IMG/VR virus record: IMGVR_UViG_3300037483_001334
Direction: 5' to 3' (one strand)
Source of the DNA: a virus
DNA: 64,000 nt
The notes below the pieces were generated by a model. It was not told the DNA's origin. It made no database searches and saw only the letters and a list, made by a program, of their open reading frames with translations. The position numbers and the translations under genes were made by a program. This document shows, piece after piece, positions 15,313-63,408 of this stretch (its first letter is position 1; each line of letters opens with the position of its first letter).

Positions 15313-15314
15313 CC

Positions 15315-18805: not shown

Positions 18806-18858
18806 CCCCGGGTACCCTTCTCGTTGACCTGGAACCCCAGATCAGCGATACCAAGGGG

Positions 18859-28500: not shown

Positions 28501-30318
28501 ATGGCCGTTCTGATCGCATTCATTCTCGGCGTCGCGCTCGTCGCGACCCCCATCGTTCTCGACGCTGTCGGGATTCACCTCGGCACCGCATCGCAGGTCA
28601 CGATGACCGCATCGGGCGCGGCGATGATCCTGTTCAGCGCAGTCGCGTTCGTGTTCACGCGCCTCTACCACAAGACGAAGGCGTCGGAAGCGTTCGTGCG
28701 CACCGGTCAGGGCGGCGCGAAGGTGATCCAGGACGGCGGAGCGGTCATCGTGCCGTTCATCCACGAGCTGGTGCGCGTCTCGCTGCGCACGCAGCGCCTG
28801 GAGGTCATCCGCGCCAACGAGAATTCGCTAATCACGCACGACAAGCTGCGTGCCGACATCCGCGCCGAGTTCTTCGTGCGCGTCGACCCGGAGGTGAGCG
28901 CGATCCTCCAGGCGGCCCGTTCTCTCGGTGACGGCCAGAGCGATCACGACGCGGTGAAGCTCCTCGTGGAGGACAAGCTCGTCAGCGCGCTCCGCACCGC
29001 CGCGGCGACCAAGACGCTCGAAGAGCTGAACAGCGAGCGGGACAAGTTCCTGGAGAAGGTCACGACGCTGCTCCAGAACGATCTGAAGAACAACGGTCTC
29101 GTGCTGGAGACGGTGACGATCTCGGCGCTCGATCAGACGGATCCGAAGTTCCTCAAGACGAACAACATCTTCGACGCGCAGGGCAGCAAGAAGATCGCCG
29201 AAATCACGCAGGCCAGCCTGACCGAGCGCAACGCGCTGGAGCGCACAGGCGAGGAGACGCGCAAGCAGCAGGACGTCGAGAACCGCAAGCGCATTCTGGC
29301 GATGGAGCAGGACGAGAAGCGCGCGACGGCCACGCAGGAGGCGGAGGTCGCGCAGCTGCGTGCGACGGCAACGCGCGACTCGACGACGAAGGTCATCGAG
29401 ATGGAAAAGGAGACGCAGCTCGCCAACATCGGCAAGCAGCGCGACCTGGAGGTCGCCGAGACCCAGCGTCAGCAGGCCCTGGCCCTCGCGGAAGAGCTGA
29501 AGGGCAAGGAGGTCTCGATCGCGCAGCAGGCCCGTGAGCAGGCGACCCTCGTGGCGCAGCAGCAGAAGGAGGCGGCTGGCGCGACGGCCCAGGCTGAGAA
29601 GGCGGAGCAGCAGCGCATCCTCGCGAAGAAGGAGGCCGAGGTCGCGAGCGCCCAGCAGGAGATCGAGACGATCAAGATCACGCAGCAGGCGGAGCGCGCA
29701 AAGGCGAAGAGCGTCATCGAAGCTCAGGCAGAGGCCCAGCGGTCAGTGCTGAAGAGCAACGCCGAGTCGGACGCGCAGTCGTATCAGATCGAGACGGGTG
29801 CGAAGTCCCGTCGGCTGGCCGCCGACGCCGAGGCCGAGGCGGTGCTCAAGAAGGCGACCGCCGAGACGGACGCTGACAAGATGCGTGCGGGTGCCGAGAA
29901 GGTCCGCGCGATGGTTCCGGTCGACGTGCGCAGGGCAGAGGTCGAGGTCGAGCGAGATCGGGTCGAGACCGTCGTCAAGCCCGAACTGGAAGCCCGCGAG
30001 AAGCACGGCAAGGTCGCGCAGGACTTCGAGATCGCGAAGATGCAGGTCATCGCGGAGAAGGAGGTCCGCATCGCGTTCGCGACGGCGCAGGCGACCGTCT
30101 TCTCGCGCATGGAGGCGAAGTTCTACGGCTCGCCGGCAGACGCCGCGAAGATGCTCGCATCGTTCACCGGCGGCCAGAGCCTGGCGACGACGGTCGAGGG
30201 GCTCGCCGAGAACATGAGCGAGTCGTCGAAGACGTTCGTGGGCGATGCGGTCGTGGCCGTAGGCAGGGCCGCTGTGCAGGCCTTGCAGTCAGCGCCGTCG
30301 GCGCCGAACGGCAAGTAG
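28501..30318 (+). CDS. flotillin/SPFH (band 7) domain protein (YqiK-like)
   Basis: N-terminal TM, SPFH core, long Ala/Glu/Gln-rich coiled coil. Confidence 0.7.
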   Translation: MAVLIAFILGVALVATPIVLDAVGIHLGTASQVTMTASGAAMILFSAVAFVFTRLYHKTKASEAFVRTGQGGAKVIQDGGAVIVPFIHELVRVSLRTQRLEVIRANENSLITHDKLRADIRAEFFVRVDPEVSAILQAARSLGDGQSDHDAVKLLVEDKLVSALRTAAATKTLEELNSERDKFLEKVTTLLQNDLKNNGLVLETVTISALDQTDPKFLKTNNIFDAQGSKKIAEITQASLTERNALERTGEETRKQQDVENRKRILAMEQDEKRATATQEAEVAQLRATATRDSTTKVIEMEKETQLANIGKQRDLEVAETQRQQALALAEELKGKEVSIAQQAREQATLVAQQQKEAAGATAQAEKAEQQRILAKKEAEVASAQQEIETIKITQQAERAKAKSVIEAQAEAQRSVLKSNAESDAQSYQIETGAKSRRLAADAEAEAVLKKATAETDADKMRAGAEKVRAMVPVDVRRAEVEVERDRVETVVKPELEAREKHGKVAQDFEIAKMQVIAEKEVRIAFATAQATVFSRMEAKFYGSPADAAKMLASFTGGQSLATTVEGLAENMSESSKTFVGDAVVAVGRAAVQALQSAPSAPNGK

Positions 30319-31331: not shown

Positions 31332-32276
31332 ATGAAGTTCGATATCGGAAAGCACACGGTTTACCTCGCGCGCCACGGCAGCCGCGCGTATGGCACGAGC
31401 ACGCCCGAGTCCGATCTGGACATCAAGGGCTTCGCAGTCGCGCCGAAGTTGTACACGCTGGGCTTCGCGCACAAGTTCGAGCAGTACGAGGAGCACGGTG
31501 CAGACAGCCCCGAGGGGCCACTCGATTCTGTCGTGTACGACATCCGGAAGTTCTGCCGACTGGCGGCGGACTGCAATCCGAACATCATCGAGGTGCTGTT
31601 CATCGATGACTCGGACGTGCTGACGCTGCATCCAGCTGGGAAGCTGGTGCGCGACAACCGCGAGGCGTTCCTGTCGAAGAAGGCGCGCATCACGTTCAGC
31701 GGGTACGCCGTCAGCCAGCTGAAGCGCATCAAGACGCATCGCGGGTACCTGCTCAACCCGCCTACACACAAGCCGACGCGCGAGGAGTTCGGGCTGGCGG
31801 TCGACATGAAGATCACCGCCGACATGATGGGCGCGTTCGACAAGGTCACCGCTGGCGGAGAAGCTGTCGATCCGAACGTGATGGAGCTGGTGGCGCGCGA
31901 GAAGCGCTACAAGGCGGCGCTCGAACGGTGGAACCAGCACGAGAGCTGGAAGGCGAATCGGAACGAGAAGCGTGCGGCACTGGAAGCGGAACATTCATAC
32001 GATTCGAAGCACGCTGGACACCTCGTTCGGCTCTTGCGGATGTGTCGTGAGATCCTCACGGGCAAAGGAGTGATCGTGCGTCGGCCTGACGCGGCCGAGC
32101 TACTCGCCATCCGCAACGGCGAGTGGTCGTACGAGAAGCTCATCGAGTGGGCCGAGCGCGAGGACGGCGAGATGCGGGCGCTGTACGACGCGTCGACGCT
32201 GCCGGACGAACCGGACATGGGGAAGCTGAACGCGATCTGCGTCGAGGCGCAGGAGCGCTTCTGGAGGATGTCGTGA
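31332..32276 (+). CDS. nucleotidyltransferase (Pol-beta fold) with helical C-terminal domain
   Basis: ARHGSRAYGTSTPESDLDIKGF (hG[GS]x9-13Dh[DE]h motif). Confidence 0.5.
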   Translation: MKFDIGKHTVYLARHGSRAYGTSTPESDLDIKGFAVAPKLYTLGFAHKFEQYEEHGADSPEGPLDSVVYDIRKFCRLAADCNPNIIEVLFIDDSDVLTLHPAGKLVRDNREAFLSKKARITFSGYAVSQLKRIKTHRGYLLNPPTHKPTREEFGLAVDMKITADMMGAFDKVTAGGEAVDPNVMELVAREKRYKAALERWNQHESWKANRNEKRAALEAEHSYDSKHAGHLVRLLRMCREILTGKGVIVRRPDAAELLAIRNGEWSYEKLIEWAEREDGEMRALYDASTLPDEPDMGKLNAICVEAQERFWRMS

Positions 32277-37988: not shown

Positions 37989-38492
37989 GTGTCCCGAGCA
38001 AATACCACAGAACGATTTGCCATGACAGCAGAGCAGCTGGCCTGGCTGGCCGGGCTCCTTGAGGGCGAAGGCTCCTTCATGAAGGGCCCACCGTCGAAGC
38101 CCGGAGCGCCATGCGTGGCCGTGTCGATGACCGACCGAGACGTTGTTGAACGTGCTGCGGCATTGATGGGAGTGTCTTGCCAGGGCCCCTACCTCCGCAA
38201 GAACCTGAAAGTGTGGAAGCCGTACTACATGGCGACGGTACGCGGGTATCCTGCCGCCGATCTGATGAAGCTCTTGCGAGATCACATGGGAGCAAGGAGG
38301 AGGGCTCAGATCGACGCGGCCATGGCAACGTTCAGCGTGAAGCATCGTCAGAAGATCCAAAAGTCGCGTGTCTTGGAGATCAAGGTCATGCTGGCGGAAG
38401 GCCGCGGAGACCGTGAGGTGGCCCGCCATTTCAGGTGTGCTCATAGCTTGATCGGACGCATCAGGAGAGGAGAGTCGTACGCACAGGTCTAG
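37989..38492 (+). CDS. single-motif LAGLIDADG homing endonuclease with C-terminal HTH-like tail
   Basis: LAWLAGLLEGEGSF. Confidence 0.8.
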   Translation: MSRANTTERFAMTAEQLAWLAGLLEGEGSFMKGPPSKPGAPCVAVSMTDRDVVERAAALMGVSCQGPYLRKNLKVWKPYYMATVRGYPAADLMKLLRDHMGARRRAQIDAAMATFSVKHRQKIQKSRVLEIKVMLAEGRGDREVARHFRCAHSLIGRIRRGESYAQV

Positions 38493-42113: not shown

Positions 42114-42187
42114 GCGGACGTAGCCCAACGGCAGAGGCACCGGATTCAAGTCCCGGTCAGGTGTGGGTTCGAATCCCACGGTCCGCA
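42114..42187 (+). tRNA. class-I-like tRNA with Leu anticodon CAA, A73
   Basis: D-arm GCCCAACGGCAGAGGC; loop TTCAAGT; A·C at 31·39; T-loop TTCGAAT. Confidence 0.55.
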
Positions 42188-42208
42188 ACAACACGATTGA
42201 GGCACATC

Positions 42209-42778
42209 ATGGAGAAGAGAGCGCTGGTTCTGGTCGAGGAGAAGAGAACGCCGATCGTGATCGCCGAGAGGAAGGTTCTCGTCCTGAACATGTACTACCA
42301 GCCGGAGCGCATCGTCGACTGGCAGCGTGCCGTCTGCCTCATCTACGACGGCAAGGCAGACCTCATCGAGAGGTACGAGGGTGAGCTGCTGCGCTCTCCG
42401 AGCATGTCGATGGAGTTCCCGTCGGTCATCCGGAAGACGAAGAAGTCGCGGATGCGGAAGGTCTCGATCAAGTTCTCGCGGCAGAACGTGCTGCTGCGTG
42501 ACGGGAACACCTGTCAGTACTGCCAGGTGCCCTTCGAGCCGAGGGAGCTGAACTACGATCACGTCCTTCCCAGGTCGCGCAAAGGCAAGACCGAGTGGGA
42601 CAACATCGTGATGTCCTGCTACCCGTGCAACGAAAAGAAGGGCGACAGAACGCCGGCCGAGGCCAAGATGCAGCTGAAGCGCGCGCCGCGAAAGCCCGAC
42701 TGGCTTCCCATCGTCAGCAAGCGCTTCGACCTCGGCGCGGTGCCGGAGACCTGGCGGCCGTACCTGGTCGCGGCATGA
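42209..42778 (+). CDS. HNH endonuclease (McrA-like)
   Basis: CQYCQVPFEPRELNYDHVLPRSRKGKTEWDNIVMSCYPCNEKKG. Confidence 0.75.
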   Translation: MEKRALVLVEEKRTPIVIAERKVLVLNMYYQPERIVDWQRAVCLIYDGKADLIERYEGELLRSPSMSMEFPSVIRKTKKSRMRKVSIKFSRQNVLLRDGNTCQYCQVPFEPRELNYDHVLPRSRKGKTEWDNIVMSCYPCNEKKGDRTPAEAKMQLKRAPRKPDWLPIVSKRFDLGAVPETWRPYLVAA

Positions 42779-46117: not shown

Positions 46118-46789
46118 TCGTAGAGATTCGAGCTGGCGAAGGTGGCGCAGACGCCAAGGACTTGGTCCGCGAGCAGTTCGGCGTGTACGCCCGGCTGATG
46201 GAGCGGAGGGGTCTTTGACTTCGCTCTCGTAGATGAGCGCAGCGGCTTCCTCTCGTTCCAAGCGAGCGGCAAGGGAGCGCGTGAGACGTTCTCGCGAGAG
46301 TCAGGAGGGCACCGATGGCAGCGCGTGCCGCCCTCTGAGAAGCGTGGCCGCGTTCAGACATCGACGGTGACCGTTGCGGTGCTGGAAGAGCCGAAGGCGG
46401 CTGCGGTTCAGATCGAAGAGCGCGACGTCGAGTGGTCGACGTGCCGTGGCTCTGGTGCCGGAGGTCAGCATCGGAACGTCACCAACAGCGCGGTGCAGAT
46501 GGTGCACCTCCCGACCGGGCTTCGAGTGCGCGTCGAGAACGAGCGCTCGCAGCATGCGAACCGTGAGATCGCCCTGAGGATCTTGCGCGCGCGCATCCAC
46601 GAGCAGCGCGAGACCGCGAGCACGGCGGCACGGTCAGACAGTCGCCGGCAGCAAGTCGGCAGCGGTGAGCGCGCGGACAAGGTGCGGACGATCCGCGCAC
46701 AGGACGGACAGGTAACCGATCACCGATCCGGACAGCAAATCCGATACAAGGACTACGTCCGAGGAAACTGGGACGGCTTGTTCAGATAA
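46105..46789 (+). CDS. truncated class-I peptide chain release factor (RF1-like domains 2-4 with GGQ; tripeptide-motif position reads PPS) requiring a +1 programmed frameshift at CUU UGA C (46213-46219)
   Basis: Frame 0 (46105-46218) gives MESVIVEIRAGEGGADAKDLVREQFGVYARLMERRGL*. The +1 frame from 46217 continues the homology (ESGGHRWQRVPPSEKRGRVQTSTVTVAVLEE...GSGAGGQHRN...GQVTDHR) to 46789. GGAGG lies 3 nt upstream of CTT, as in prfB. Confidence 0.7.
46205..46219 (+). promoter_or_regulatory. prfB-type +1 frameshift element: internal Shine–Dalgarno GGAGG, 3-nt spacer, CUU UGA C
   Basis: cggaGGAGGggtCTTTGAC. Confidence 0.65.
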
Positions 46790-47077: not shown

Positions 47078-47191
47078 TGTGCTGCACACCGGGTAGGCTC
47101 TAGTAGGCCTGTGCCGGTCGGTAGTAGGCGGCGTGCTAGCGCTGTGTACTGTCTGGGTCATACGGTTCGATTCCCCGTGCAGCCACCTTTT
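47078..47191 (+). ncRNA. YrlA-like RNA candidate (Ro60-associated tRNA mimic): terminal 7-bp stem GCTGCAC/GTGCAGC enclosing a tRNA-like T-arm, then CCACCTTTTCC
   Basis: T-loop GGTTCGATTCC but no tRNA acceptor; repeated GTAGTAGGC motifs; immediately upstream of the Ro60 gene. Confidence 0.35.
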
Positions 47192-47234
47192 CCCTGACAG
47201 CTGGGTTGTCGGGTTGTTCGTCTGGGAGGTTCCG

Positions 47235-48941
47235 ATGTCTGACTATGCTGCGCATCTGGGCGATGCGAAGAAGAAGGCTGTTTCTGTCCGCGAGGACGCT
47301 CCGCAGTCGGCCAAGGCCGACGCGCGTCAGGTCAAGAACGCGGCCGGCGGCTTCGCGTTCGAGGTCGACGACTGGAAGCGTCTCGATCGGTTCCTCATCC
47401 TGGGAGCCGAGGGCGGCACGTTCCATGTGGGCGAGCAGAAGCTCGTGCGCGAGGGCGCGGGTGCACTGGAGCGCTGCCTGAAGGACGACGCGAGCGCGGC
47501 GATCGAGCACATCGCGGCGATCAGCGAGTCGGGCCGCGCGCCGAAGAACGATCCTGCGATCTTCGCACTCGCCGTCGCAGCGTCACACGCAGACCCGGTC
47601 GTGCGGCGCCTCGCACTGGCTGCGCTCCCGCGCGTCTGCCGGATCGGCACGCACATCTTCCAGTTCGCGGAGCAGGTCCAGCAGCTTCGCGGCTGGGGCG
47701 CTGGCCTCCGGCGTGCGGTCGGCGCGTGGTACACGAGCAAGGAGGGTGGCGACCTTGCCTACCAGCTGGTGAAGTACCAGCAGCGCGGCGGTGTGTCGCA
47801 TCGCGATCTGCTCCGACTGTCGCACCCGAAGTCGAAGGATCCGATCGTGCAGGCTATCCTGCGGTGGACCATCGCGGGCTCGTCGGGCCTCGGCGAGCGC
47901 AGCGTCAAGCGCAAGCAGCAGGAGGCGGGCGTCTCGTACGAGGCGGTCGCGGCTGGCGCGCTGCCGAAGGTCATCGAGGGCTTCGAGCGCGTGAAGCTCG
48001 CAACGACGCCCGAGGAGTGTGCCGCTCTCGTGCGCGAGTACAACCTCACGCACGAGATGGTGCCGTCTGAGCAGCAGAAGCACGCCGTCGTCTGGGACGC
48101 GCTCCTTCAGCGCATGCCGATGCACGCGATGGTGCGGAACCTGGGCCGGATGACGGCGAACGGCCTGCTCGTTCCGGGCTCGGACGCGGCGAAGCACGTC
48201 GTGAAGCAGCTGAAGAACGAGGCGGCGATCAAGAAGTCGCGAATGCACCCGCTCGCGGTACTGATGGCACTTCGCACATACGCGTCGGGCCATGGCGAGA
48301 AGGGCAAGCTGACCTGGACGGCCGTGAAGCCGATCATCGACGCACTCGATGACGCGTTCTATGCTGCGTTCGAGACCGTCGAGCCCACGGGCAAGAGCAT
48401 CATGCTCGCGCTCGACGTGTCGGGCTCGATGGCTGGCAGCCAGGTTGCCGGCACGTCGTTGACCGCGCGCGAGGCCGTTGCCTGCATGGCGATGGTCACG
48501 GCTCGTCGCGAGCCGGACTACGACCTCGTGGGCTTCACGGCGGGCGGCTCCGGCTATGGCGGCCGCTGGGGCGGCTCGGCGTCGGGTCTCTCTCCCGTCG
48601 CGATCACGGCGAAGACGGCGCTGTCGGACGCGTGCAAGATCATGGAGCGCATGTCCATGGGCGGCACCGACTGTGCGCTTCCCATGCTTCACGCGCTCGG
48701 CAAGAAGCAGAAGGTTGAGGCCTTTTGCGTCTACACCGACAACGAGACCTGGGCGGGCGCCGTGCACCCGTTCAAGGCGATCAAGCAGTATCGTGAGCAG
48801 ATGGGCATCCCCGCGAAGCTCGTCGTCGTCGGCACGGAAGCGTCGCCGTTCACCATTGCCGATCCGTCGGACGCCGGCATGCTTGATGTCGTCGGCTTCG
48901 ACTCCGGCGCCCCCGCAGTCATCGCGGACTTCATCCGCTGA
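47235..48941 (+). CDS. rsr: Ro60 (Ro sixty-related, Rsr) orthologue: TROVE domain + C-terminal vWA/MIDAS
   Basis: Long helical-repeat N-terminal region; DVSGSM MIDAS motif; RBS GGGAGG 6 nt upstream. Confidence 0.75.
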   Translation: MSDYAAHLGDAKKKAVSVREDAPQSAKADARQVKNAAGGFAFEVDDWKRLDRFLILGAEGGTFHVGEQKLVREGAGALERCLKDDASAAIEHIAAISESGRAPKNDPAIFALAVAASHADPVVRRLALAALPRVCRIGTHIFQFAEQVQQLRGWGAGLRRAVGAWYTSKEGGDLAYQLVKYQQRGGVSHRDLLRLSHPKSKDPIVQAILRWTIAGSSGLGERSVKRKQQEAGVSYEAVAAGALPKVIEGFERVKLATTPEECAALVREYNLTHEMVPSEQQKHAVVWDALLQRMPMHAMVRNLGRMTANGLLVPGSDAAKHVVKQLKNEAAIKKSRMHPLAVLMALRTYASGHGEKGKLTWTAVKPIIDALDDAFYAAFETVEPTGKSIMLALDVSGSMAGSQVAGTSLTAREAVACMAMVTARREPDYDLVGFTAGGSGYGGRWGGSASGLSPVAITAKTALSDACKIMERMSMGGTDCALPMLHALGKKQKVEAFCVYTDNETWAGAVHPFKAIKQYREQMGIPAKLVVVGTEASPFTIADPSDAGMLDVVGFDSGAPAVIADFIR

Positions 48942-48949
48942 GTTCACCC

Positions 48950-49020
48950 GGCTCGGGCCGAAGTTCGACGGTTATCGGTTAAATCACCGTCGGATACCAC
49001 CTTGCCCGAGCCATCTTTTC
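48950..49020 (+). ncRNA. Y-RNA-like RNA 1
   Basis: 5' GGCTCGGGC-CGAAG ... CCACC-TTG-CCCGAGCC 3' plus a U-tract; resembles the conserved Ro-binding helix (GGCUGGUCCGAAG / CUUGACUAGCC) with a bulged purine. Confidence 0.5.
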
Positions 49021-49152: not shown

Positions 49153-49245
49153 CGACCGAGCCGACGTCTACGGGTTATCATCCAACAACCGGGCCTAAAC
49201 CCGGCAACAATGCCCCGTTGGCAATACCTTGCTCGGTCTTTTCTC
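49153..49245 (+). ncRNA. Y-RNA-like RNA 3
   Basis: 5' CGACCGAG-CCGACG ... CCTTG-CTCGGTC-TTTTCT 3'. Confidence 0.45.
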
Positions 49246-54000: not shown

Positions 54001-54801
54001 TCACGGCTTCTCTCCGAGCGTTGCCAACTTCAGGCGCAATCGGAAGATCTCGTTCAGCAGGTCGCGTGTGGTCGACTGCATCTTGCCGGGACGCCGCGAG
54101 ATCCACGCGCGTAGTTCCGCCTCCCACTCCGGCGTTACGGGCCGCATCGGGTCGCGCGACACGTCGTCGTACGGCGGCATGAAGTCTTCACGCTCGGCAA
54201 GCGCGTTCATGAACATCACGCCCTGCTCGTGCGCGTCGTCCTGTGCCCTGTGCGTGTGCTTCAGGCTCTTGTCGAACCAGCGCGGCGGGAAGTTTCGCTT
54301 CGACGACTCGGCGAAGCCGGTTCCGAGTAGCGCCATCGCGAAGGTCTTGACGTCGAGCGCCGAGAAGCTGAACGGCGACGTTCCCGTGAAGGCGATCAGG
54401 TACCAGTACACGAACGTGAAGTCGTAGCCGGATGGGTAGCAGACGGCGATGGGCTTGCCGGGCAGGCAATCGAGCCAAGCGACGAACGCGTGCATCGCCT
54501 TGTCGGGATGCTGCACGTTCGTCTGGCATTCCTTCCATGCTTCAGGCTGCGTCGCCCACCATTTCATCGTGTCTGGGTCGGACGTGGCGCCCTGGAGCAG
54601 CTGGAAGTTGGCGCTGAAGGTCGATATGGGCTTCGTGCGGTCTGGGCTGCGCGGGTCGAACGCAGCTGCGCCGAGCGACAGCATCGAGTTCTTGCCCGGG
54701 ATCGGCCCGTCGGACTCGACATCGATCGAGACGTAGATCTCAGGCCTCTGCTTGTGCTTCTTGCTCACACGGCTCTCTTCTCGCGCATCATGGCGCGCCA
54801 C
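54001..54801 (-). CDS. DEDDh-family 3'-5' exonuclease (DnaQ-like fold)
   Basis: Exo [11 protein letters not shown]; Exo III HRAQDDA. Confidence 0.6.
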
Positions 54802-54962
54802 GCATCGATTGCGCCTTGTTCTGTGTTGTGCACGGCCACCTCGTCGACCAGCGCCGACTCGCCCAACGAGGTGAAGCCGTTGTACGCGACGTAGTAGTCG
54901 TCACCCCATCCGGTGACCAGAAACGTCGCGACCTCGTCTTCAACGTCTGCTGTTTCACTCAT
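54765..54962 (-). CDS. small hypothetical protein
   Basis: ORF 65 aa. Confidence 0.25.
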
Positions 54963-56262
54963 CGCGCGCGACCTCCTCTCGTACAGGCGTCACGTCACCC
55001 GCATGCGTCACTTCGATGTCCCAGCGTGCCCCTGTGTGATAGCGGCTGAACGCCGTCGCCGTGGCCGGAGCAAGAGACCATGTTCCGCTGTTGTTGCCGA
55101 AGCTCACCGCGTAGCTTTCCTCTGACACGAGGCGGTACGTGCCGTCCGTGCTCGGCAGCGGAAGGTCAGGCCATGCGATCGGATCTCGGTCGCTGCCGGA
55201 CGTGTTCTCGGTCCGCACGGTCGGCCATTCGTAGAAGTCGTAGTCGCACCACCGGTCGTACGTCGGACACTGCTCGTAGCAGGTGTCGTACTCCGTGCAC
55301 GAGTCGCACTCGGTCGAGTATGTCGTAGTGCACGTCTCTTCACAGTCGCTGAAGCCGTTCGAACCCGACGTGCACTCGGTCTCGCAGTCTTCGCCGGTGG
55401 CGACGTCGTGACAGCGGCAGTCGACCGTGTGCGGATCACAGTCGTACGGATTGCAGTCGTGCGTTCCGTGCTGTTGCTCGACGCACGACACGTTGAACGC
55501 GCCGAGCGGCGAGCCCCAGCCGTTGCCGTGCTGCACGATGCGGTGCTGAAGGGCGAGCGTGCGGTCCCAGCGAGCCGACGTGACCCGAACGTGCTCGTGC
55601 CAGGGCATGAATAGCCATGTCAGAAACCAGACGAGCAGCACGCCGCAGCCGAGCACGGCAACGACCCGGACGATCCCGCGTATGCGTCGCTGCCGACGAA
55701 AGTACGACCGCTCGCTCGCCTCGCTCTCGTCCTCGCTCTCGTCCTCGCTCGGTGGCGGCGGCGACGGCGGCGGACCGGCGGAAAACGCCGCATCACGATA
55801 GCCAACGCCGACCACAGCCGCGCGCGGCGTTTCTCGCCGTGGCCGAACCGTCTCGTCGTTCGCTTCCGCTCCCCCCGTTTCGGGCAGCGTCATCGTCGGC
55901 ATGCCGTTCACGACTGTGCTGGGGTCCCATCCCGCTGCGCGCATGGTAATCGGGTCGGCGTTCCCGTCCGCGCCGCACTCGAAGCACACGACCGCAGAAG
56001 CACGGTTCTCGAAGCGACAGAAGCCGCAGTCCCAGTTTGGCTCGGCGCCGGCCATCGCGACGAGCTTCAGGTCGGTGACAGCCGGAAGGCTCGTAGCGTT
56101 CCTTTCGTCGTACGCCTCGTCACTCTTCCCCTTACCGCACTTGCCGCACCTGAGGTCACGCCCCCTGTTGAGCGCTCGACACGCAGAACACGTCCACGTG
56201 TGCTCGACCTTCCAGCGACGCTTGGTCGTTGTCGTCTTCCAGCGACGCTTGGTCGTTGTCAT
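54955..56262 (-). CDS. membrane protein with two N-terminal RanBP2-type zinc fingers, tandem N-terminal repeat (TTTKRRWK x2) and Cys-rich ectodomain
   Basis: WTCSACRALNRGRDLRCGKCG and WDCGFCRFENRASAVVCFECG; TM VVAVLGCGVLLVWFLTWLF. Confidence 0.45.
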   Translation of the reverse strand: MTTTKRRWKTTTTKRRWKVEHTWTCSACRALNRGRDLRCGKCGKGKSDEAYDERNATSLPAVTDLKLVAMAGAEPNWDCGFCRFENRASAVVCFECGADGNADPITMRAAGWDPSTVVNGMPTMTLPETGGAEANDETVRPRRETPRAAVVGVGYRDAAFSAGPPPSPPPPSEDESEDESEASERSYFRRQRRIRGIVRVVAVLGCGVLLVWFLTWLFMPWHEHVRVTSARWDRTLALQHRIVQHGNGWGSPLGAFNVSCVEQQHGTHDCNPYDCDPHTVDCRCHDVATGEDCETECTSGSNGFSDCEETCTTTYSTECDSCTEYDTCYEQCPTYDRWCDYDFYEWPTVRTENTSGSDRDPIAWPDLPLPSTDGTYRLVSEESYAVSFGNNSGTWSLAPATATAFSRYHTGARWDIEVTHAGDVTPVREEVARDE

Positions 56263-56483
56263 CAGCGCCCGCGTTTCTGGTCCAGGTCGTCAGCGGCTTG
56301 GTCGAGAGCGTCTGCGATGCACGCGGCGATGCTCTCGTACTCGTGGCGCTCGTGCCATCCAGCATGGGCCAGCTGCGTCATCGCGTGTTCTCGCAGTAGT
56401 GCCGCGGCCTCGGCCAGGCCGTCGCGCACGCCGCGCCCGTACGCGTCATCCGAGGGGAGCGGTTCCGGAGTGCCCGCGCTCAC
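56262..56483 (-). CDS. small hypothetical protein
   Basis: ORF 73 aa. Confidence 0.3.
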   Translation of the reverse strand: MSAGTPEPLPSDDAYGRGVRDGLAEAAALLREHAMTQLAHAGWHERHEYESIAACIADALDQAADDLDQKRGR

Positions 56484-56902
56484 GGGTCCTCGTCTCTGTC
56501 GGTGTCGCGCTCGCGATTACAGGTCGCAAGCGCGTGCGCGAGCAAGCGATCATGCAGTTCGTACTGTGCGATCTCGGTCGCGTGCGCCTCGTTGATGTCG
56601 TCGTAGTCGGCGACCAGCACGTCTCGCGCTCTGTAGCAGCGGTCGAGACGCGTTACGCACTCCCCGTGCTCTTCGAGCACCTCCGGTGCACAGAAGTCCG
56701 TGGGCATCACGACGCGCACGGCGGCTGGCTCGCGAACACGGAGGTCGTTCGACCACGAGGCGTTCATGCCGCCCCATCCGGCCACGACCAACGTCCAGAG
56801 AAGAAGAGCGCCAGCCCGTCGCAGGTCAGCACGACGCTCCCTGTCGTGCCAGGCCACAAGCTCAGCTCGCGCCGTCTCGATGTCGTTGGTGCGGTAGGGC
56901 AT
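56480..56902 (-). CDS. membrane protein
   Basis: ORF 140 aa; TM ALLLWTLVVAGWGGM. Confidence 0.35.
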   Translation of the reverse strand: MPYRTNDIETARAELVAWHDRERRADLRRAGALLLWTLVVAGWGGMNASWSNDLRVREPAAVRVVMPTDFCAPEVLEEHGECVTRLDRCYRARDVLVADYDDINEAHATEIAQYELHDRLLAHALATCNRERDTDRDEDP

Positions 56903-57167
56903 GCGACATACGTCTTACACGGCTACATGCGGTCGTGCAACCACAAATCGCAGCAGCGTCCGACCTAGGGCGGCGCGACTTCAACGAACGCCACGAGCCC
57001 CTCGTCAGCCTCACGCATGCAGAGGCGCGCGATGTCTTTGGGCGAGATCAGCTCGCTCGCGTACGTCTTGTCCGGCTGCTGGACCCGGACGGCAGTCGAC
57101 GTGCGCCGAAACTGTGCCCAGCTCGCGGCGTATAGCGCCCACCATTCGGGTCCGAAACGCTGCGGCG

Positions 57168-57530
57168 TCATGGCGTGACGACGTACCAGTCCTTGGCGAC
57201 CATGTCTTCGAGGAGAGCGTCCCAGCCGAAGCGGACGTATCCATGACGAATGCCGTTATCCCGCGGCACCTTGCGGCGCGTGGCCATGTAGATCAGCGGA
57301 CTTTGTGAGTAGCCGGAGGTAGGCCAGGCCCACATCAGTTCGGATTCAGCTTTCTGCAACCCGACCGTAGCTGGATCGAGGACGCCAATCCAGCCGTCAT
57401 GCTCATCGGCCTTCCAGGAGTCGATGTGCCCTGGACGATATCCGTCGCTGGCCCATAGGCGCCGCGCGATCTTCGAGCCCTCATCGAGCATCAATCGCAT
57501 CGCAACTGAGAAATCCATATCACCGTTCAT
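57168..57530 (-). CDS. DUF2829-like phage protein
   Basis: FSVAMRLMLDEGSKIARRLW pattern; internal ATG of ORF 57168..57716. Confidence 0.35.
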   Translation of the reverse strand: MNGDMDFSVAMRLMLDEGSKIARRLWASDGYRPGHIDSWKADEHDGWIGVLDPATVGLQKAESELMWAWPTSGYSQSPLIYMATRRKVPRDNGIRHGYVRFGWDALLEDMVAKDWYVVTP

Positions 57531-57788
57531 CTTCCACCTCTTCCTGAATGTGAACGAAGTCGAGCGCTCGCAGGCCCGCCTCGCTTGCGCGCATCGCCTC
57601 CGCGCTGCGAAGTCGTCGTACTTCAGCGCGCAGCTCATCGAGAGACATCTCGTCCACGTCGTCACGGAATGGGGCGTCGACGACCCACTCGTAGAACGGG
57701 TGAATGACCGGTTCATGGAGGATGCTCGGACGATGCCAGCTTGGCCGGCACATCCAACACCCGCCAGTCGAGCCGCACATGCAGGACG

Positions 57789-58301
57789 TCATGCCTTCTG
57801 CTTTCTGAGTAAACGCCTGGCTGCCGTGAGTAGGTTTTCTGGCTTCGCGTGACGATAGTGGCCCGCGCACAGCTGCACGGGCACTTCGTCTGGTGAGCGG
57901 AGTCCAGGACGCGGAACACGCACGATACGTTCTGCGGCGATCGCCGCGAGACAGAGCGCGCAGTGAGGTCCCGCGTCGGCGGCATCCGGCATCATGTCCA
58001 GTGGGCTGGTGGTATCTGGCCCGTCGTTCATGTGCTTGAGATGAAGCTGAAGTGCCGCGATGAGCGCACGCGTCGCGTCCGGAGTCAGCAAAGGTGTACT
58101 GCCGCTGCCTCCGCTATTGTGCCGTTCGAGAAAGAGCCAGAGTCGGTCTGTTGGACGCCCGAGGCCGTGATTTTGGCCGCCGAAAACGGTTGCTTGCTTT
58201 ACGATCAGCATCGCGCCGTTGGCGTCTTCGATGTTCGCGTACACGCGGCAGCCGCGGGCGTCACGTTTCATGCTGCGTCCTACAGGGTCTTGGGCTCCCA
58301 A
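57789..58301 (-). CDS. hypothetical protein
   Basis: ORF 170 aa. Confidence 0.3.
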   Translation of the reverse strand: MGAQDPVGRSMKRDARGCRVYANIEDANGAMLIVKQATVFGGQNHGLGRPTDRLWLFLERHNSGGSGSTPLLTPDATRALIAALQLHLKHMNDGPDTTSPLDMMPDAADAGPHCALCLAAIAAERIVRVPRPGLRSPDEVPVQLCAGHYRHAKPENLLTAARRLLRKQKA

Positions 58302-58504
58302 CCGCGGCCGATCGGCAGGTCGTCGTAGCGAGGATCGATCACGAGCAGGCCGCGGTCCCAGCTGATGGGGAACGTCTCGTAGGGGCCGCTCTGCGTGACT
58401 AGCTCGCGGTAGAGCGGGCCAGCCGCTCGTGGCTGAAGCCGCAGGATGGCCTCATCAGGAAAGCAGTACTGGTCGGTGGAAGGGTGAACGCCGTGGTAGC
58501 TCAT
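58280..58504 (-). CDS. small hypothetical protein
   Basis: ORF 74 aa. Confidence 0.3.
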   Translation of the reverse strand: MSYHGVHPSTDQYCFPDEAILRLQPRAAGPLYRELVTQSGPYETFPISWDRGLLVIDPRYDDLPIGRGWEPKTL

Positions 58505-58894
58505 GCGTCGAGCTTACCGGACGGCCGTAGGCTCGTCACTTCCGTCGGATCGGCCGGGTGTCCGCCATCATGAAGCTGGGCGCACCCCTGCCGCGGATCG
58601 GCACAGGGCTCCGGATGAAACGGCCCCAGCTGGGCGCGCCGATCCGCAGCTGCTCCATGCAGCGCTTCGTGGCAGCCTCGAAGCTCTTGCCCTCGCCGGT
58701 GAAGACAAGCAGCGGCCGAGGCCACTGACCGACCTGCGTGATGGCGTTGGGATGATCGCTCGCGATCTGGATGTACTGGATGCCGCCCTGCTCGCCGAGC
58801 CAGGCGATCATGTACGCGGTCTTCACAGACGGAGGCGCTGGAATCACAGGCTGTGCTTCTGCGCTGCGCTTGGCTGCGCCACTAAGGACTCGAC

Positions 58895-60400
58895 TCACTT
58901 CTTCCTGCCCTTCGACTGCTCCAGCTCCAGCTCCTGTTCTTCGTCGACGAAGCAGAAGCCGGGCAAGAGATTTCGCTTCCGAAGCCACTCGAAGACCGTC
59001 CGGTGAACGGCGGCGTCCAGCTCGTCATCGTGAGCGTCCGTAACGCGCTCGATCCACTCGTCGCTGGGCTCGTCGGCGCGCATGTACACGAGGCCCTTGG
59101 CCACTCCGGAGAGCACCCCCTCACCAAGGTCAGAGAGCACGCTGTCGAGATCTGGCACCGAGACCAGAGCGACCGTCGGCCGCCCATCCTCCCACTCGAT
59201 CTTCTGCACGCGCGATCTCCACGCTGTCCTAGCCGCCTCCTCCGCCTCTAGACGCGTCGCGTACTCGACGCGTAGATCGTACTGAACGTTGTAGTCGTTC
59301 AGCGCGACGCCCTTGCTCACGTCGGCCGCCGTGCCAGGGATAGCGTAGGCGTAGAACGACCGACCGTCGTACTTCGCGCACTCATCTTCGACAGACTTGG
59401 CTGTCTCGGGGTAGCGCCCCTCGCCATCGAGCCAGGCGAGCACTGCGTTGCCGTGCTCCTGGTTGTTGAGGCCCAGGTGTTCGAGCAGCTGAGCCGCAGT
59501 CGAGTTCGCGGCTCGAAGACGCGCGATCTCACCTTCGAGGACGAGGACGCGAGCTGTCCGAACGTCGACATCGGTCACCGGCTCCACGTTGTCGATCTTT
59601 GCCGGACTTTTTTCGCCGACGCGCCGGACATCCTCACGCGAGACGTCGTGGTCAGAATGACGATCCGCTGTGACGACGCATCGCTCGCCTCTGCCGTAAC
59701 TCTCGCCTCTGCCGTAGCGCTCGAACCTGGCGGCCCGCCAATGCCGCCGCCCGTCCGTCGACGTGACCCTGACCTCGACCTGGTCGCCCGGTTGAAGCCG
59801 TGACCGAATCTGGTTCACGTTCATCAGCCGGCCAGGAGCCGCCGTGCCACTTCGTTCGCGGTCGTGGTCGAAGATGACGCGGTATGGCGTCGCTCCGCCG
59901 TCGTAGACGAAGTCGATTTTTGCCAAGCGCCACTCGCTCCACGCGTCGAGCGCTTCGATGTCGAGGCCACGCCGGAAGGCGGGCCCGAGCGCCTCGGTCA
60001 GATTTTCCGGCCGCCGACGGATCTGCGTGTGGAGATAGGTCTCCTTGTGTGGGTGAGCGGCGGGAAACAAGACGGCACAGGCCAGCTGCGGGGCTGCGTA
60101 TCCCTCGCACTTCTCGTAGTTGTAGCCGTCAAAGGTAGCGGTTGCCCAGCGACCCTCTCCGACGCACACGTAGATGGGGTCACCGGTCTGAAAGCGGTAG
60201 CGGGCGAGCGAGTCGTCGCGCAGCGAGACCGGTCGGCCGTTCAGGCGGCCAGTGGAGTCCTCGAACTGAACGACGAATGCGGCGTCGGGCGCCCATAGGT
60301 TCAGAACCTGCGCTAGGCGCCAGGGGCTCGTCTCGTCTTTTCGAGCTTCGACCTTGGTTCCCGGTGCCCAGAACGACTTCCTGCGTGTCATGGCCGTCAT
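58895..60400 (-). CDS. large hypothetical protein (501 aa)
   Basis: long minus ORF; overlapping ORF 58536..58988 not chosen. Confidence 0.4.
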   Translation of the reverse strand: MTAMTRRKSFWAPGTKVEARKDETSPWRLAQVLNLWAPDAAFVVQFEDSTGRLNGRPVSLRDDSLARYRFQTGDPIYVCVGEGRWATATFDGYNYEKCEGYAAPQLACAVLFPAAHPHKETYLHTQIRRRPENLTEALGPAFRRGLDIEALDAWSEWRLAKIDFVYDGGATPYRVIFDHDRERSGTAAPGRLMNVNQIRSRLQPGDQVEVRVTSTDGRRHWRAARFERYGRGESYGRGERCVVTADRHSDHDVSREDVRRVGEKSPAKIDNVEPVTDVDVRTARVLVLEGEIARLRAANSTAAQLLEHLGLNNQEHGNAVLAWLDGEGRYPETAKSVEDECAKYDGRSFYAYAIPGTAADVSKGVALNDYNVQYDLRVEYATRLEAEEAARTAWRSRVQKIEWEDGRPTVALVSVPDLDSVLSDLGEGVLSGVAKGLVYMRADEPSDEWIERVTDAHDDELDAAVHRTVFEWLRKRNLLPGFCFVDEEQELELEQSKGRKK

Positions 60401-60402
60401 TG

Positions 60403-60903
60403 CTACCAGTCCGTGATCTGCGCAAACGCGTCTTCGTCCGCGTCGAAGCAGTGGTCAGCGCGCGAGGCGAAGACGTTTCGCGCGTGTGCGCCGCTCGCGA
60501 TGATGCGAATCGGCTCCTCGACGTTGTTGCCGAAGGCCTCGATCGCGGCGTTCCAGCCGATGGCGATGCCCAGCTCGGAGTGCACTCCAGCGCCGCCTTC
60601 GGCTGGGCACAAGATCCAGACGATGTCGGCGTCCAGCACGCCCTTCGTGTCATCATCCGCCGCGATTCGTCGCTCTTCGAAGGTCGGCGGCCTGCCGAGG
60701 GCGCGGAATCGCGCGACCTCCGGCGTCCAGTCGCACGTGATGATGTACCCGGCCTTCCGTACCTCATCCATCCACTTCTTCGCACGGTCTTCTTCGTGCG
60801 AGTACGCAGCGATGTAGATCTTGCCGCGCGGCGTGACGCCTCCGACCTCTGGGTCGGGGCTCGGTCGCTCGTCGGTCACGAGAGCGAGCCCTGCATCTTG
60901 CAC
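60403..60903 (-). CDS. nucleoside 2-deoxyribosyltransferase-like protein
   Basis: KIYIAAYSHEED...DADIVWILCPAEGGAGVHSELGIAIG. Confidence 0.35.
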   Translation of the reverse strand: MQDAGLALVTDERPSPDPEVGGVTPRGKIYIAAYSHEEDRAKKWMDEVRKAGYIITCDWTPEVARFRALGRPPTFEERRIAADDDTKGVLDADIVWILCPAEGGAGVHSELGIAIGWNAAIEAFGNNVEEPIRIIASGAHARNVFASRADHCFDADEDAFAQITDW

Positions 60904-61466
60904 GCGGCGCTGACGACCCGGCGCACGAAGGCGCTGAGCGCATCGTGGTGGATGCCGCGGATCGCCGGTGACTGCGACGTCTTCTGGAACATCGCGGTCA
61001 GCTCGGCTGCGATACCGTCGAGCCCCAGCTCAGCGCGGGTGCTCGCGGCCACGGCCGGCATAGCCGCTGGCCGGCGGTGGCCGTTCGCCGTCACCTTCGC
61101 GTGACCACGCAGTCGACGTGCCGCCGGACCGTTCGCAACCGGCCTCGGAAGCGCAGCCTCCGGCATCGGCACGACGACCGCCTTCTTCGGCGCCTTGGTC
61201 TTCGCCGCGCGGATCTCCTTCTGACCCTGGTGGATCATCTTCAGCAGATCGCTGTCCGAGCATCCGAGTGCCCTCGCGACGTGGGCGAAGTCGGGGCTGC
61301 TCTCCTGCATGACCTGATGCCCATTCTCGACGTTGCTCACGAACGTCTTTCTCGCCGCCGTGCTGGTCGAGGCATGCGTGAGCGGGAACATTCTCACGGC
61401 CCCTTCCGGGCCGCTCCAGCCGTTCTTCGTCCGCAGCGCCTTGATTCGATTCCCGAACTCCGTCAT
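60876..61466 (-). CDS. XRE-family HTH transcriptional regulator (repressor-like)
   Basis: MTEFGNRIKALRTKNGWS...; RBS GGGAGG; promoter-like TTGACT-17-TAACGT upstream on the minus strand. Confidence 0.6.
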   Translation of the reverse strand: MTEFGNRIKALRTKNGWSGPEGAVRMFPLTHASTSTAARKTFVSNVENGHQVMQESSPDFAHVARALGCSDSDLLKMIHQGQKEIRAAKTKAPKKAVVVPMPEAALPRPVANGPAARRLRGHAKVTANGHRRPAAMPAVAASTRAELGLDGIAAELTAMFQKTSQSPAIRGIHHDALSAFVRRVVSAACKMQGSLS

Positions 61467-61529
61467 GCGTTCCTCCCGAGGGTTGCCCAACCAGGACGCC
61501 GACGTTACGTGGACGATGTCTGACAGTCA

Positions 61530-61603
61530 AGACAGAAACGCGACGGCTTGCGACATACCGGTCGGGAACCCGTTGACACGCTTCGCTTGGTTCCGGTACC
61601 TAT
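61530..61603. promoter_or_regulatory. divergent promoter/operator region: TTGACT/TAACGT for the XRE gene on the minus strand, TTGACA(61573)-18-TACCTA(61597) for the plus gene (likely leaderless), palindrome TGACAGTCA
   Basis: sequence motifs read directly. Confidence 0.45.
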
Positions 61604-62030
61604 GGGCATGCTCGAACGCACCGATACCGCGGTCACCATCAGCTGCGACGCATGTCGCGCCGTCTGTCTCGTGAAGAGCGAATCCGCACTCAAGTCAGAT
61701 CCAGCGGACCCGAAAGCACCGTCGGTGAAGCTGGACGGGAACGTCGTCGTTCGCGTGCGACACGGCCAGGGCGATCGGCGGCATCGGCGTACCGTTGGCG
61801 GCGGGCAGCATCCGATCATGTGGAACAAGGAGCGGCGCCTCATCACGATCCGCGAGTACCCCTGGCTCTGCGACGACTGCTACGAGACCGGCGGCGTGGG
61901 AAAGCTCGACGACGAATGGAAGCCTCTGCGCGAGGTCTTCTGCACCGCCTGCTCAACCGTTGTTCTGCGGTACGAAGACGCTCCAGAACAGACGTGCCTG
62001 AAGTGTCGCCGGGGGGATGGTTGGCGATGA
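61602..62030 (+). CDS. Cys-rich hypothetical protein (possibly leaderless, ATG 61602/61608)
   Basis: -10 element abuts the ATG. Confidence 0.4.
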   Translation: MGMLERTDTAVTISCDACRAVCLVKSESALKSDPADPKAPSVKLDGNVVVRVRHGQGDRRHRRTVGGGQHPIMWNKERRLITIREYPWLCDDCYETGGVGKLDDEWKPLREVFCTACSTVVLRYEDAPEQTCLKCRRGDGWR

Positions 62031-62309: not shown

Positions 62310-62909
62310 GTGAAGCAGTATCCGAGCATCGACGGTGTTCCGCGCTACGGGCCGTGCTACGTGTTCCCGAAGTACGACGGGTCGAACATCCGCGCCGAGT
62401 GGACGAAGAAGCGTGGTTTCGACAAGTTCGGTTCCCGGAAGGTGCTGATCGGGCCGGACAGCATGTTCGCGGAGGCGATCTCGCTCATCGAGGCTCAGGA
62501 GGACGCATTCGCGTCGGTGTGCTCGCGTCAACGCTGGGATCGGGTGACGTGCTTCTTCGAGTTCTACGGCCGGGAGTCGTTTGCCGGCTTGCACGTGGAT
62601 GGCGACCCGAAGGTCACGACCCTGATCGACGTCGACGTGTACAGGCGCGGGCAGATCGACCCGCGCGACTTCATCGACATCTTCGGCGCTTTCGCGTACT
62701 CGGCCCCGTGTATCGCCACGAGCTTCCACAAGGAGTCGCAGCAGGGCGTTCGAGACGGTGTATTCGAGGGGCAGACGTTCGAGGGCGTGGTGTGCAAGGT
62801 CCCGAGCAAGCGGAAGTGGACGCCTCCGTACATGTACAAGATGAAGAGCGCCGCTTGGATCGAGCGCGTGAAGGCGCGGTACGGCGAGAAGGCCGAGGAG
62901 CTGCTGTGA
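62310..62909 (+). CDS. ATP-dependent RNA/DNA ligase-family nucleotidyltransferase (minimal Rnl-like)
   Basis: motif I KYDGSNIR (KxDGxR), motif IV FEGVVCK, motif V YMYKMK. Confidence 0.55.
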   Translation: MKQYPSIDGVPRYGPCYVFPKYDGSNIRAEWTKKRGFDKFGSRKVLIGPDSMFAEAISLIEAQEDAFASVCSRQRWDRVTCFFEFYGRESFAGLHVDGDPKVTTLIDVDVYRRGQIDPRDFIDIFGAFAYSAPCIATSFHKESQQGVRDGVFEGQTFEGVVCKVPSKRKWTPPYMYKMKSAAWIERVKARYGEKAEELL

Positions 62910-63151
62910 TCGTCGGGTGCTACGCAGCCGACTTCTACTGCCAGAACTCGCCGACTGCGGCCGAGACAGTTGATGGGGAAGGGACGTGTTCATCGTACAC
63001 GCCCGGAATCACCGGCCCGCATCAGTTCACGGGCAACACTCGAACGGAAGCGTACGCAGAGGCGCGTGCGTATGGCTGGCGGATCGACGTGAAGACAGAG
63101 CGAGCGTGGTGCCCGGTGTGTGCGGCGACGATGAAGAAGAAATCGAAATGA
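62906..63151 (+). CDS. small Cys-rich protein (GTG start)
   Basis: GTGA overlap. Confidence 0.3.
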   Translation: MIVGCYAADFYCQNSPTAAETVDGEGTCSSYTPGITGPHQFTGNTRTEAYAEARAYGWRIDVKTERAWCPVCAATMKKKSK

Positions 63152-63408
63152 AGAAGGTCCACAGCGTTCGCATCGACCTGACCTCGTGCCCTGGCTGCCA
63201 CGTTGCTGTCGACGGTGCAGGGAACATGGAGGGAGGACGTCTCGGACCGAAGCCGGACGATCTCTGCGTCTGCGTCTACTGCCTCGCGCTGAACCAGTAC
63301 GACGCGGGGATGCAGCTGCGCGCATTCGACTACGAAACGTTGGGACCCGAAGATCGCGCGCAAATCGACAAGGTGCGCGCGATCATCCGCGGCCGCATCT
63401 CGAACTGA
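63148..63408 (+). CDS. small Cys-rich zinc-binding protein
   Basis: ATGA overlap; CPGCH...CVCVYC. Confidence 0.35.
   Translation: MKKVHSVRIDLTSCPGCHVAVDGAGNMEGGRLGPKPDDLCVCVYCLALNQYDAGMQLRAFDYETLGPEDRAQIDKVRAIIRGRISN

Follow-up and report, generated by a model that had tools for sequence, protein, structure and literature searches.

The 64,000-nucleotide stretch of viral DNA considered here (IMG/VR record IMGVR_UViG_3300037483_001334; at its full length referred to as the window) carries a short gene for a stand-alone nucleotidyltransferase (NTase) of the RNA-ligase type, which we call the mini-ligase. A preliminary description of the sequence had located an open reading frame (ORF) with the motifs KYDGSNIR, FEGVV and YKMK and had read it as a covalent nucleotidyltransferase ligase of about 200 amino acids. 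We recovered the ORF with all three motifs in place at 62310-62909 on the plus strand (199 amino acids), and the class assignment stands as well, given invariant motifs and matches to RNA-ligase folds. The gene and its motifs are listed below in the residue numbering of the window protein; conservation refers to an alignment of 48 family sequences.

62310-62909, plus strand: RNA-ligase-type stand-alone nucleotidyltransferase gene; GTG start, TGA stop, 199 amino acids, 22.8 kDa, pI 8.5
62370-62393, plus strand: motif I, KYDGSNIR, residues 21-28; K21 is the predicted AMP-accepting lysine
62424-62441, plus strand: candidate motif Ia, KFGSRK (K39, G41, R43), from conservation in the 48-sequence alignment
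62550-62570, plus strand: motif III, CFFEFYG, residues 81-87; E84 aligns with T4 Rnl2 E99
62622-62639, plus strand: motif IIIa, LIDVDV, residues 105-110; D107 aligns with T4 Rnl2 D120
62778-62798, plus strand: motif IV, FEGVVCK, residues 157-163; E158, G159 and K163 align with T4 Rnl2 E204, G205 and K209
62835-62846, plus strand: motif V, YKMK, residues 176-179; K177 and K179 align with T4 Rnl2 K225 and K227

The window has a GC content of 64%, and spurious ORFs are plentiful in all of its frames. The ligase ORF has GC fractions of 0.56, 0.43 and 0.89 at the three codon positions, a coding-frame pattern, and is a real gene, far beyond chance. Its GTG start is supported because nearly all homologs start with MK(Q/H)YP.

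Seventeen positions are invariant in the alignment (K21, D23, G24, R28, K39, G41, F83, E84, S90, G93, D107, E158, G159, K163, K177, K179 and W183), and N26 and R43 are each conserved in at least 90% of the sequences. The superfamily motifs K21-Y-D-G, E84, D107, E158-G-x-x-x-K163 and K177-x-K179 are all invariant across the 48 sequences. When T4 Rnl2(1-249) is added to the alignment, ten catalytic-motif positions are identical, with Rnl2 K35, G38, N40, E99, D120, E204, G205, K209, K225 and K227 corresponding, in that order, to K21, G24, N26, E84, D107, E158, G159, K163, K177 and K179 of the window protein. [quoted passage not shown] Motif Ia is proposed more tentatively, since KFGSRK lies two residues out of register with K54-R55 of T4 Rnl2. 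No second ligase of this family, and no other KxDG ligase, was found in the window.

Next, we compared the protein with known nucleotidyltransferases by profile and by fold. The window protein matches the PHROGs family phrog_548 ('RNA ligase') with E = 3.2e-9, but the match is limited to the NTase part, positions 32-241 of the 341 in the profile. T4 Rnl2, taken from the annotated T4 record, matches the same profile from end to end (8e-139), which identifies phrog_548 as the T4 Rnl2 family. In a Pfam scan, 34 of the 48 aligned members matched PF09414 (RNA_ligase; best 1.6e-10), three weakly matched the Rnl1-type PF09511, and none matched the DNA-ligase family PF01068 or capping families. An AlphaFold2 model built with the family alignment as input is a single compact domain (mean predicted local distance difference test score 95, predicted template-modelling (TM) score 0.90) with the predicted fold of an NTase (adenylyltransferase). 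When this model was compared with the PDB by Foldseek, the top 23 matches were RNA-ligase chains, headed by T4 Rnl2 (1e-7) and followed by NgrRnl, T4 Rnl1, REL1 and MthRnl; DNA ligases begin at 9e-4. The best match in the viral structure library BFVD (TM 0.83) is a 204-amino-acid 'RNA ligase domain-containing protein' from an uncultured myovirus, which is 24% identical to the window protein, is automatically labelled and is not established as a member of the family; RNA ligase 2 proteins of 307-362 amino acids from phages and giant viruses come next. The preliminary description had named best matches to DNA ligases or capping enzymes as the outcome that would speak against an RNA ligase; the leading Foldseek matches and the Pfam scan both go the other way. 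Judged by these profiles and by the model, the window protein is an RNA-ligase-type enzyme consisting of the catalytic domain alone. The family is so divergent in sequence that its link to ligases is visible only through the comparison of folds and through the broader models of PHROG and Pfam.

On balance, we consider it probable that the gene product is a catalytically intact polynucleotide ligase that depends on ATP, belongs to the REL/Rnl2-type (PF09414) lineage and has the NTase domain alone. By analogy with characterised ligases, the enzyme would use ATP, act on RNA and serve in repair. K21 would attack ATP to form lysyl-AMP (step 1), with E84, D107, E158, K163, K177 and K179 forming the nucleotide and metal pocket; the AMP would then be moved to a 5'-phosphate end (step 2), and attack by an RNA 3'-OH would form the phosphodiester (step 3). 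Its substrates would most likely be, like those of Rnl2 and Rnl5, breaks with 3'-OH and 5'-PO4 ends in RNA that is structured or base-paired, because both of these enzymes seal duplex nicks that have an RNA 3'-OH strand and because the RNA specificity of NgrRnl lies within the NTase domain itself (PMC4408790).

The family to which the protein belongs is large and of fixed architecture. A search of 5.8 billion proteins returned 618 homologs at E<=1e-3, the best of them 100% and 76% identical to the window protein, and an exhaustive hmmsearch with the 48-sequence profile against 1.84 billion cluster representatives (50%-identity clusters) gave 843 representatives at E<=1e-3, 638 at <=1e-10 and 355 at <=1e-30. 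Among 264 collected family proteins the median length is 205 amino acids, and 252 fall between 190 and 225. The motif I lysine stands at median position 22 (244 members; residue 21 in the window protein), a median of 23 residues follow motif V (20 after K179 in the window protein), and the median pI is 8.7. Longer ORFs are few and mostly have over-extended starts. One small subgroup bears a Cys-rich (CxxC...CxxC) C-terminal tail of about 85 residues (loci L039, L040 and L043, 285 amino acids; P0130, 283 amino acids), which may be a nucleic-acid-binding add-on; P0263 (287 amino acids) also has a C-terminal extension, which is not Cys-rich. Between the window and its syntenic relative, locus L001, the ligase is 76% identical as against 46% and 63% for the flanking genes, a difference in sequence conservation that indicates strong purifying selection on the ligase.

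What the protein lacks is as characteristic as what it retains. All six structurally characterised families of RNA ligases that depend on ATP have a module flanking the NTase domain, a distinctive C-terminal domain in Rnl1, 2, 3, 4 and 6 and an N-terminal OB-like domain in Rnl5, and a C-terminal OB domain is present in every DNA ligase (PMC7261155). Genuine Rnl2 homologs combine PF09414 with PF18043, the Rnl2 C-domain, which is found in all but one of the 120 listed; in members of the present family PF18043 was never found, only PF09414 or nothing being annotated. PHROGs contains separate families that match the Rnl2 C-domain only, so split Rnl2 genes exist, and we therefore searched for one here. 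A hidden Markov model of the Rnl2 C-domain gave nothing significant in 15,972 stop-to-stop ORFs of at least 40 amino acids from the window and 110 fetched loci, the best match (E=0.034) being an XacN1 gene annotated as a tRNA amidotransferase; a split gene is rejected for the regions searched. Since the flanking domains are absent and no split C-domain was found, the protein is a stand-alone NTase domain, with neither an Rnl2 C-domain, nor an Rnl5 N-domain, nor an OB domain. It lacks the domain that defines Rnl2, Rnl5, Rnl1, DNA ligases or capping enzymes, and has every feature looked for in the catalytic core.

The differences from individual ligases follow the same pattern. T4 Rnl2, whose family also includes trypanosome REL1 and REL2, has a C-terminal domain of about 90 amino acids (PF18043) that it needs in order to recognise and adenylylate nicks (PMC1807946) and that is missing as a whole from the window protein; segments of the T4 Rnl2 N-domain at about residues 14-25 and 163-188 have no counterpart in it either, motif I is KxDG instead of the KxHG of T4 Rnl2, and identity is about 15-19%. 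In Rnl5 (Deinococcus DraRnl, Naegleria NgrRnl), both adenylylation and the sealing of nicks depend on an N-terminal OB-like domain of about 126 amino acids (PMC1807946, PMC4408790). The window protein lacks any such domain, its lysine standing at residue 21, and is like Rnl5, as far as the published description allows comparison, in that the chain ends soon after motif V with no C-terminal appendage (PMC1807946). T4 Rnl1, the classic phage tRNA-repair ligase, has a C-terminal tRNA-specificity domain that the window protein lacks, and the family matches PF09414 far more often than the Rnl1-type PF09511. Nor does it fit the mRNA capping enzymes, which are GTP-dependent and are recognised by NTase plus OB domains and by close likeness to guanylyltransferases in structure or sequence.

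DNA ligases of the Chlorella virus and Lig E type have an OB domain with motif VI and measure 249-298 amino acids, whereas the window protein is some 50-100 residues shorter and has no OB domain. These comparisons bear on the idea that the mini-ligase acts on DNA or on RNA-DNA junctions in phage replication or repair, for example at nicks with the 3'-OH of an RNA patch or primer remnant. We regard this as improbable, because the OB domain universal in DNA ligases is absent (PMC7261155), PF01068 is matched by none of the 48 members, and in the Foldseek comparison RNA ligases have E-values some three orders of magnitude better than those of DNA ligases. Moreover, in a relative represented by loci L002/L003 (392 kb), a canonical DNA ligase (PF01068 plus OB) is encoded separately, at 4 kb downstream from the mini-ligase, so that the mini-ligase is not the only ligase there and is not the replicative DNA ligase; a Ro60 homolog lies 8 kb downstream in the same relative.

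14597-15715, coordinates of L002/L003: canonical DNA ligase
18119-19759, coordinates of L002/L003: Ro60 homolog

The family comes almost wholly from huge phages and marks them. The 20 matches in the annotated phage collection all cover the full length and all lie in genomes of 385-642 kb: 15 are Lak megaphage records, four are uncultured huge phages and one is Xanthomonas phage XacN1. XacN1 is the sole cultured carrier found, and its homolog, ORF354, is annotated 'hypothetical protein'. In IMG/VR, relatives are encoded by 154 stretches; of the 80 loci retained, roughly half are on contigs of 200-620 kb. Prokaryotes, represented by one genome each of 185,579 species, yielded only 24 loci, nearly all on contigs of metagenome-assembled genomes from scattered taxa, which have the look of viral DNA that was mis-binned or had integrated. 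No known phage matches the window closely at the DNA level; the relatives nearest to it are two metagenomic contigs, of 297 and 424 kb. The carrier genome IMGVR_UViG_3300033233_000001 (297,749 bp) has a ligase 76% identical to that of the window. Carriers are nearly all contigs of 200-640 kb with big sets of translation-related genes, and the genome from which the window derives probably measures about 300 kb or more.

The coding strand changes shortly before the mini-ligase: the genes from 54001 to 61490 are encoded on the minus strand, and 61548 begins a unit on the plus strand. Other ORFs of this unit are:

61548-62030, plus strand: Cys-rich, zinc-ribbon-like ORF of 160 amino acids, first of the plus-strand unit; 46% identical in the syntenic L001
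62906-63151, plus strand: Cys-rich ORF of 81 amino acids, the GTG of which overlaps the ligase stop (GTGA)
63148-63408, plus strand: ORF of 86 amino acids with a CxxC...CxxC pattern, the ATG of which overlaps the preceding stop (ATGA); 63% identical in L001/L006

The 160-amino-acid upstream ORF is absent from ligase loci other than L001. Residues 61-64 of its product form a KLDG tetrapeptide resembling ligase motif I, probably by chance, since the protein has no other ligase motif or similarity. The 81-amino-acid ORF has no Pfam hit and no tblastn match in any locus, even L001, and the 86-amino-acid ORF has no Pfam or PHROG hit and is kept only in the closest relative.

For a wider comparison, the five genes on each side of the ligase in 86 loci were clustered by blastp, and the loci were grouped into 39 ligase clades at 60% identity. 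A conserved operon is rejected, no neighbour being common to the 39 clades: NUDIX and HNH genes each occur in four clades, a Cys-rich upstream protein in three and DnaJ in two, adjoining the ligase in both. A block of HNH, His_Phos_1, GroES, AAA ATPase and glycosyltransferase genes is a feature of one syntenic clade, and only a single clade has a His_Phos_1 phosphatase near its ligase. The idea of a zinc-ribbon partner was prompted by the coupled Cys-rich ORFs of the window, the Cys-rich gene at position -1 in three clades and the tails of the 285-amino-acid variants; it is not supported, since ORFs with CxxC pairs stand at +1 and -1 in 6/39 and 3/39 clades as against a background of 7.5%, which is not significant. 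In locus L036 (6001-7806), a 601-amino-acid ORF joins the mini-ligase in frame to an AAA ATPase, which in the sister locus L053 is a separate, ATGA-coupled downstream gene. The L036 ORF may be a genuine fusion or the product of an assembly error; an artefact is possible because the frame changes by one base relative to L053 at the ATGA junction.

We also considered whether the mini-ligase might be the catalytic subunit of a two-part ligase, with a nucleic-acid-binding partner supplied in trans from elsewhere in the genome of about 300-400 kb or from the host. There are precedents for such an arrangement. The trypanosome editing ligases rely on the OB folds of partner proteins; the Rnl2-type NTase of REL2 on its own fails to hold nicked double-stranded RNA tightly and is aided by a separate protein, the editosome protein A1, whose OB fold acts in trans to promote the binding of RNA by ligase L2 (PMC3413154). 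When Rnl2 and Rnl5 are cut down to their NTase domains, steps 1 and 2 are impaired (PMC1807946, PMC4408790), PDB entry 9hu3 is a heterodimeric phage DNA ligase, and the PHROGs families with only an Rnl2 C-domain, the Cys-rich tails of some members and the in-frame AAA ATPase of L036 can be read in the same sense. We nonetheless think a two-part enzyme unlikely. Over the 39 clades no neighbour is conserved within 6-10 kb on each side of the locus, zinc-ribbon ORFs are not enriched there, the Rnl2 C-domain has no homolog in the ORFs searched, the flanking proteins of the window are conserved only in its nearest relative, and the single-base difference from the sister locus may make the AAA fusion an assembly error. 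REL ligases keep a C-terminal partner-binding domain, which the mini-ligase lacks, and no partner was found in the regions examined.

By raw count, NUDIX genes are found no more than five genes away from the ligase in L004, L005, L009 and L078 (as gene -1), in L045/L047, in L062 and in L019/L033; in one clade the gene, directly upstream in L004/L005, overlaps the ligase start by 4 nucleotides. Trimming of 5' ends, or of ends that are 5'-adenylylated or capped, is something that NUDIX enzymes could do. These genes are of interest for the proposal that the mini-ligase carries out only part of the pathway, with 5'-adenylylated RNA as its end product, with pre-adenylylated ends as its substrates for sealing, or with transfer of a nucleotide to an acceptor other than nucleic acid. 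We know of no ligase-fold enzyme that has 5'-adenylylated RNA as its end product, and of the alternatives we consider this one the least probable, and very improbable. In its favour, the isolated NTases of Rnl2, DraRnl and NgrRnl lose step 2 or step 1 and keep or gain step 3, so that they remain active on nicks already adenylylated (PMC1807946, PMC4408790). Against it, the link with NUDIX genes is weak, at four of 39 clades or about 10%, and the lysines of motif V are invariant, the equivalent Lys326 of DraRnl being implicated in AMP transfer to the 5'-PO4 (PMC1807946).

The preliminary description had also pointed to a large tRNA set, Ro60 with Y RNAs and an exonuclease in the same DNA, all of which we identified: ARAGORN predicts 30 tRNA genes between 34854 and 49833, and the other RNA-related features are listed here.

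31332-32276, plus strand: RlaP, a Pol-beta nucleotidyltransferase of RNA-repair pathways (PF10127, E=8e-20), just upstream of the tRNA array
47133-48941: Ro60 (TROVE 2e-45, vWA_Ro60 4.5e-59)
48949-49012, plus strand: match to RF01656, 40.3 bits, above the gathering score; directly 3' of Ro60
49153-49238, plus strand: match to RF01656, 32.1 bits; directly 3' of Ro60
54001-54801, minus strand: Rv2179c-like exoribonuclease

RF01656 is a nematode small-RNA family, which we take to comprise stem-bulge RNAs related to Y RNAs, and the two matches are likely phage Y-RNA-like partners of Ro60. Homologs of Ro60 occur in 357 phage records, almost all of actinophages; with little or no overlap between this distribution and that of mini-ligase carriers, Ro60 is rejected as a general partner of the enzyme. 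RlaP (short for 'RNA ligase-associating Pol-beta') reportedly has a distribution in jumbo phages that mirrors that of RNA ligases (PMC7824862). Within the phage collection, the window's RlaP is matched best by LR745208, which is also the nearest carrier of a mini-ligase in that set, and RlaP is present in all 15 Lak records too. Were the mini-ligase to receive help in trans from a protein encoded elsewhere, RlaP would be the best candidate for a functional associate.

Other genes of the window were noted in passing. Upstream of RlaP lie an AbiEii/DUF2204-like nucleotidyltransferase (27176-27829, plus strand) and a 605-amino-acid SPFH/Band 7 protein (28501-30318, plus strand). An HNH endonuclease (42161-42778, plus strand) and a weak LAGLIDADG-like ORF (37989-38492, plus strand) among the tRNA genes are probably homing endonucleases. 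A 154-amino-acid RF-1 domain protein in the tRNA region beside Ro60 (46325-46789, plus strand; PF00472, 1.4e-30) resembles a fragment of a peptide-release factor or a peptidyl-tRNA hydrolase. A Tad2-like (Thoeris anti-defence 2) domain occurs in a 182-amino-acid protein (57168-57716, minus strand; PF11195, E=1.6e-5, slightly above the curated cut-off), the gene of which lies at 4.6 kb from the ligase and may serve in anti-defence, and a 166-amino-acid protein (60403-60903, minus strand) has weak likeness to nucleoside 2-deoxyribosyltransferase (phrog_1817, E=1.7e-4).

From the tRNA set, Ro60 and the exonuclease, the preliminary description had proposed an RNA-repair axis in which the ligase mends tRNAs cut by host anticodon nucleases. 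The named genes are indeed present. The tRNAs, Ro60, RlaP and the exoribonuclease, however, belong to other transcription units at a distance of 7.5-30 kb from the ligase, the association is not conserved in the 39 clades, and no end-healing enzyme was found among the 40 window proteins scanned. The more specific role at anticodon breaks also sits poorly with the nearest relatives, since Rnl2 and Rnl5 seal duplex nicks and repair of the anticodon loop is the province of Rnl1 and Rnl4 (PMC4408790). Repair of tRNA by the mini-ligase, considered by analogy and in this broader sense, is plausible.

Several findings weigh against the reading of the gene as an intact ligase of the NTase domain alone. 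In the literature searched, we found no description or assay of a natural RNA ligase of this kind. The isolated NTase of DraRnl (N-delta-126) has 8% of nick sealing and 4% of adenylylation left, T4 Rnl2 without its C-domain self-adenylylates and cannot seal a nick (PMC1807946), and NgrRnl-deltaN has 4% of its activity left (PMC4408790). At the level of sequence, the window protein has no match in Pfam (even at E<=10), in NCBIfam or among PDB sequences, and neither an hmmsearch of PDB sequences with the family profile nor phmmer with the window protein and two homologs reached a solved ligase. Alignment of the family by hhalign was not significant against single sequences of T4 Rnl2, Rnl1 and DNA ligase, and it found nothing against a narrow 23-sequence Rnl2 alignment (Neff, the effective number of sequences, 2.6), which we treat as lack of power and not as evidence against homology. 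To these may be added the lack of a conserved operon; the absence of Ro60 from nearly all, perhaps all, mini-ligase carriers in the phage collection; and the failure of a Pfam scan to find a polynucleotide kinase, phosphatase, 2H enzyme, RtcB or similar among 40 proteins of the window (all calls of at least 150 amino acids except the ligase, plus nine shorter ones, from 64 kb of a larger genome).

Since isolated NTase domains are poor ligases, the mini-ligase should have an adapted surface, a partner encoded elsewhere, or a partial reaction. With no C-terminal, N-terminal or OB module, its substrate would be recognised by the mildly basic NTase domain itself or in trans. We lean towards autonomy, because no neighbour is conserved and the size is uniform over hundreds of clusters. 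In its strongest form, that of a natural self-sufficient single-domain ligase in which a bare NTase of about 200 residues does all three steps on RNA, this is a possibility we put forward tentatively and with some doubt. Such an enzyme might be a primary form, or one secondarily stripped of its modules in which changes to the NTase surface restored autonomy.

The enzyme class itself is already known. ATP-dependent ligases of jumbo phages have been placed in the Rnl1 and Rnl2 families, and three Rnl2-family paralogs, of which ORF354 may be one, have been counted in XacN1 (PMC7824862). The novelty is the NTase-only RNA-ligase architecture in a large uncharacterised family, which poses the question of whether a bare NTase domain serves as a complete ligase or is helped, and if so by whom. 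In the ligase field, the stand-alone NTase is a hypothetical ancestor (PMC4408790, PMC1807946). A self-sufficient mini-ligase would be a living example of this postulated ancestor of RNA ligases, DNA ligases and capping enzymes, and at 23 kDa such an RNA ligase would define the minimal ligase and could serve as a reagent; if the enzyme instead depends on a factor in trans, a new partner would come to light. For the phages, possession of a sealing enzyme of this type would keep their own and host RNAs, tRNAs included, intact against host nucleases, and because nearly all carriers are huge phages, the role of the ligase bears on how RNA is protected during their infection.

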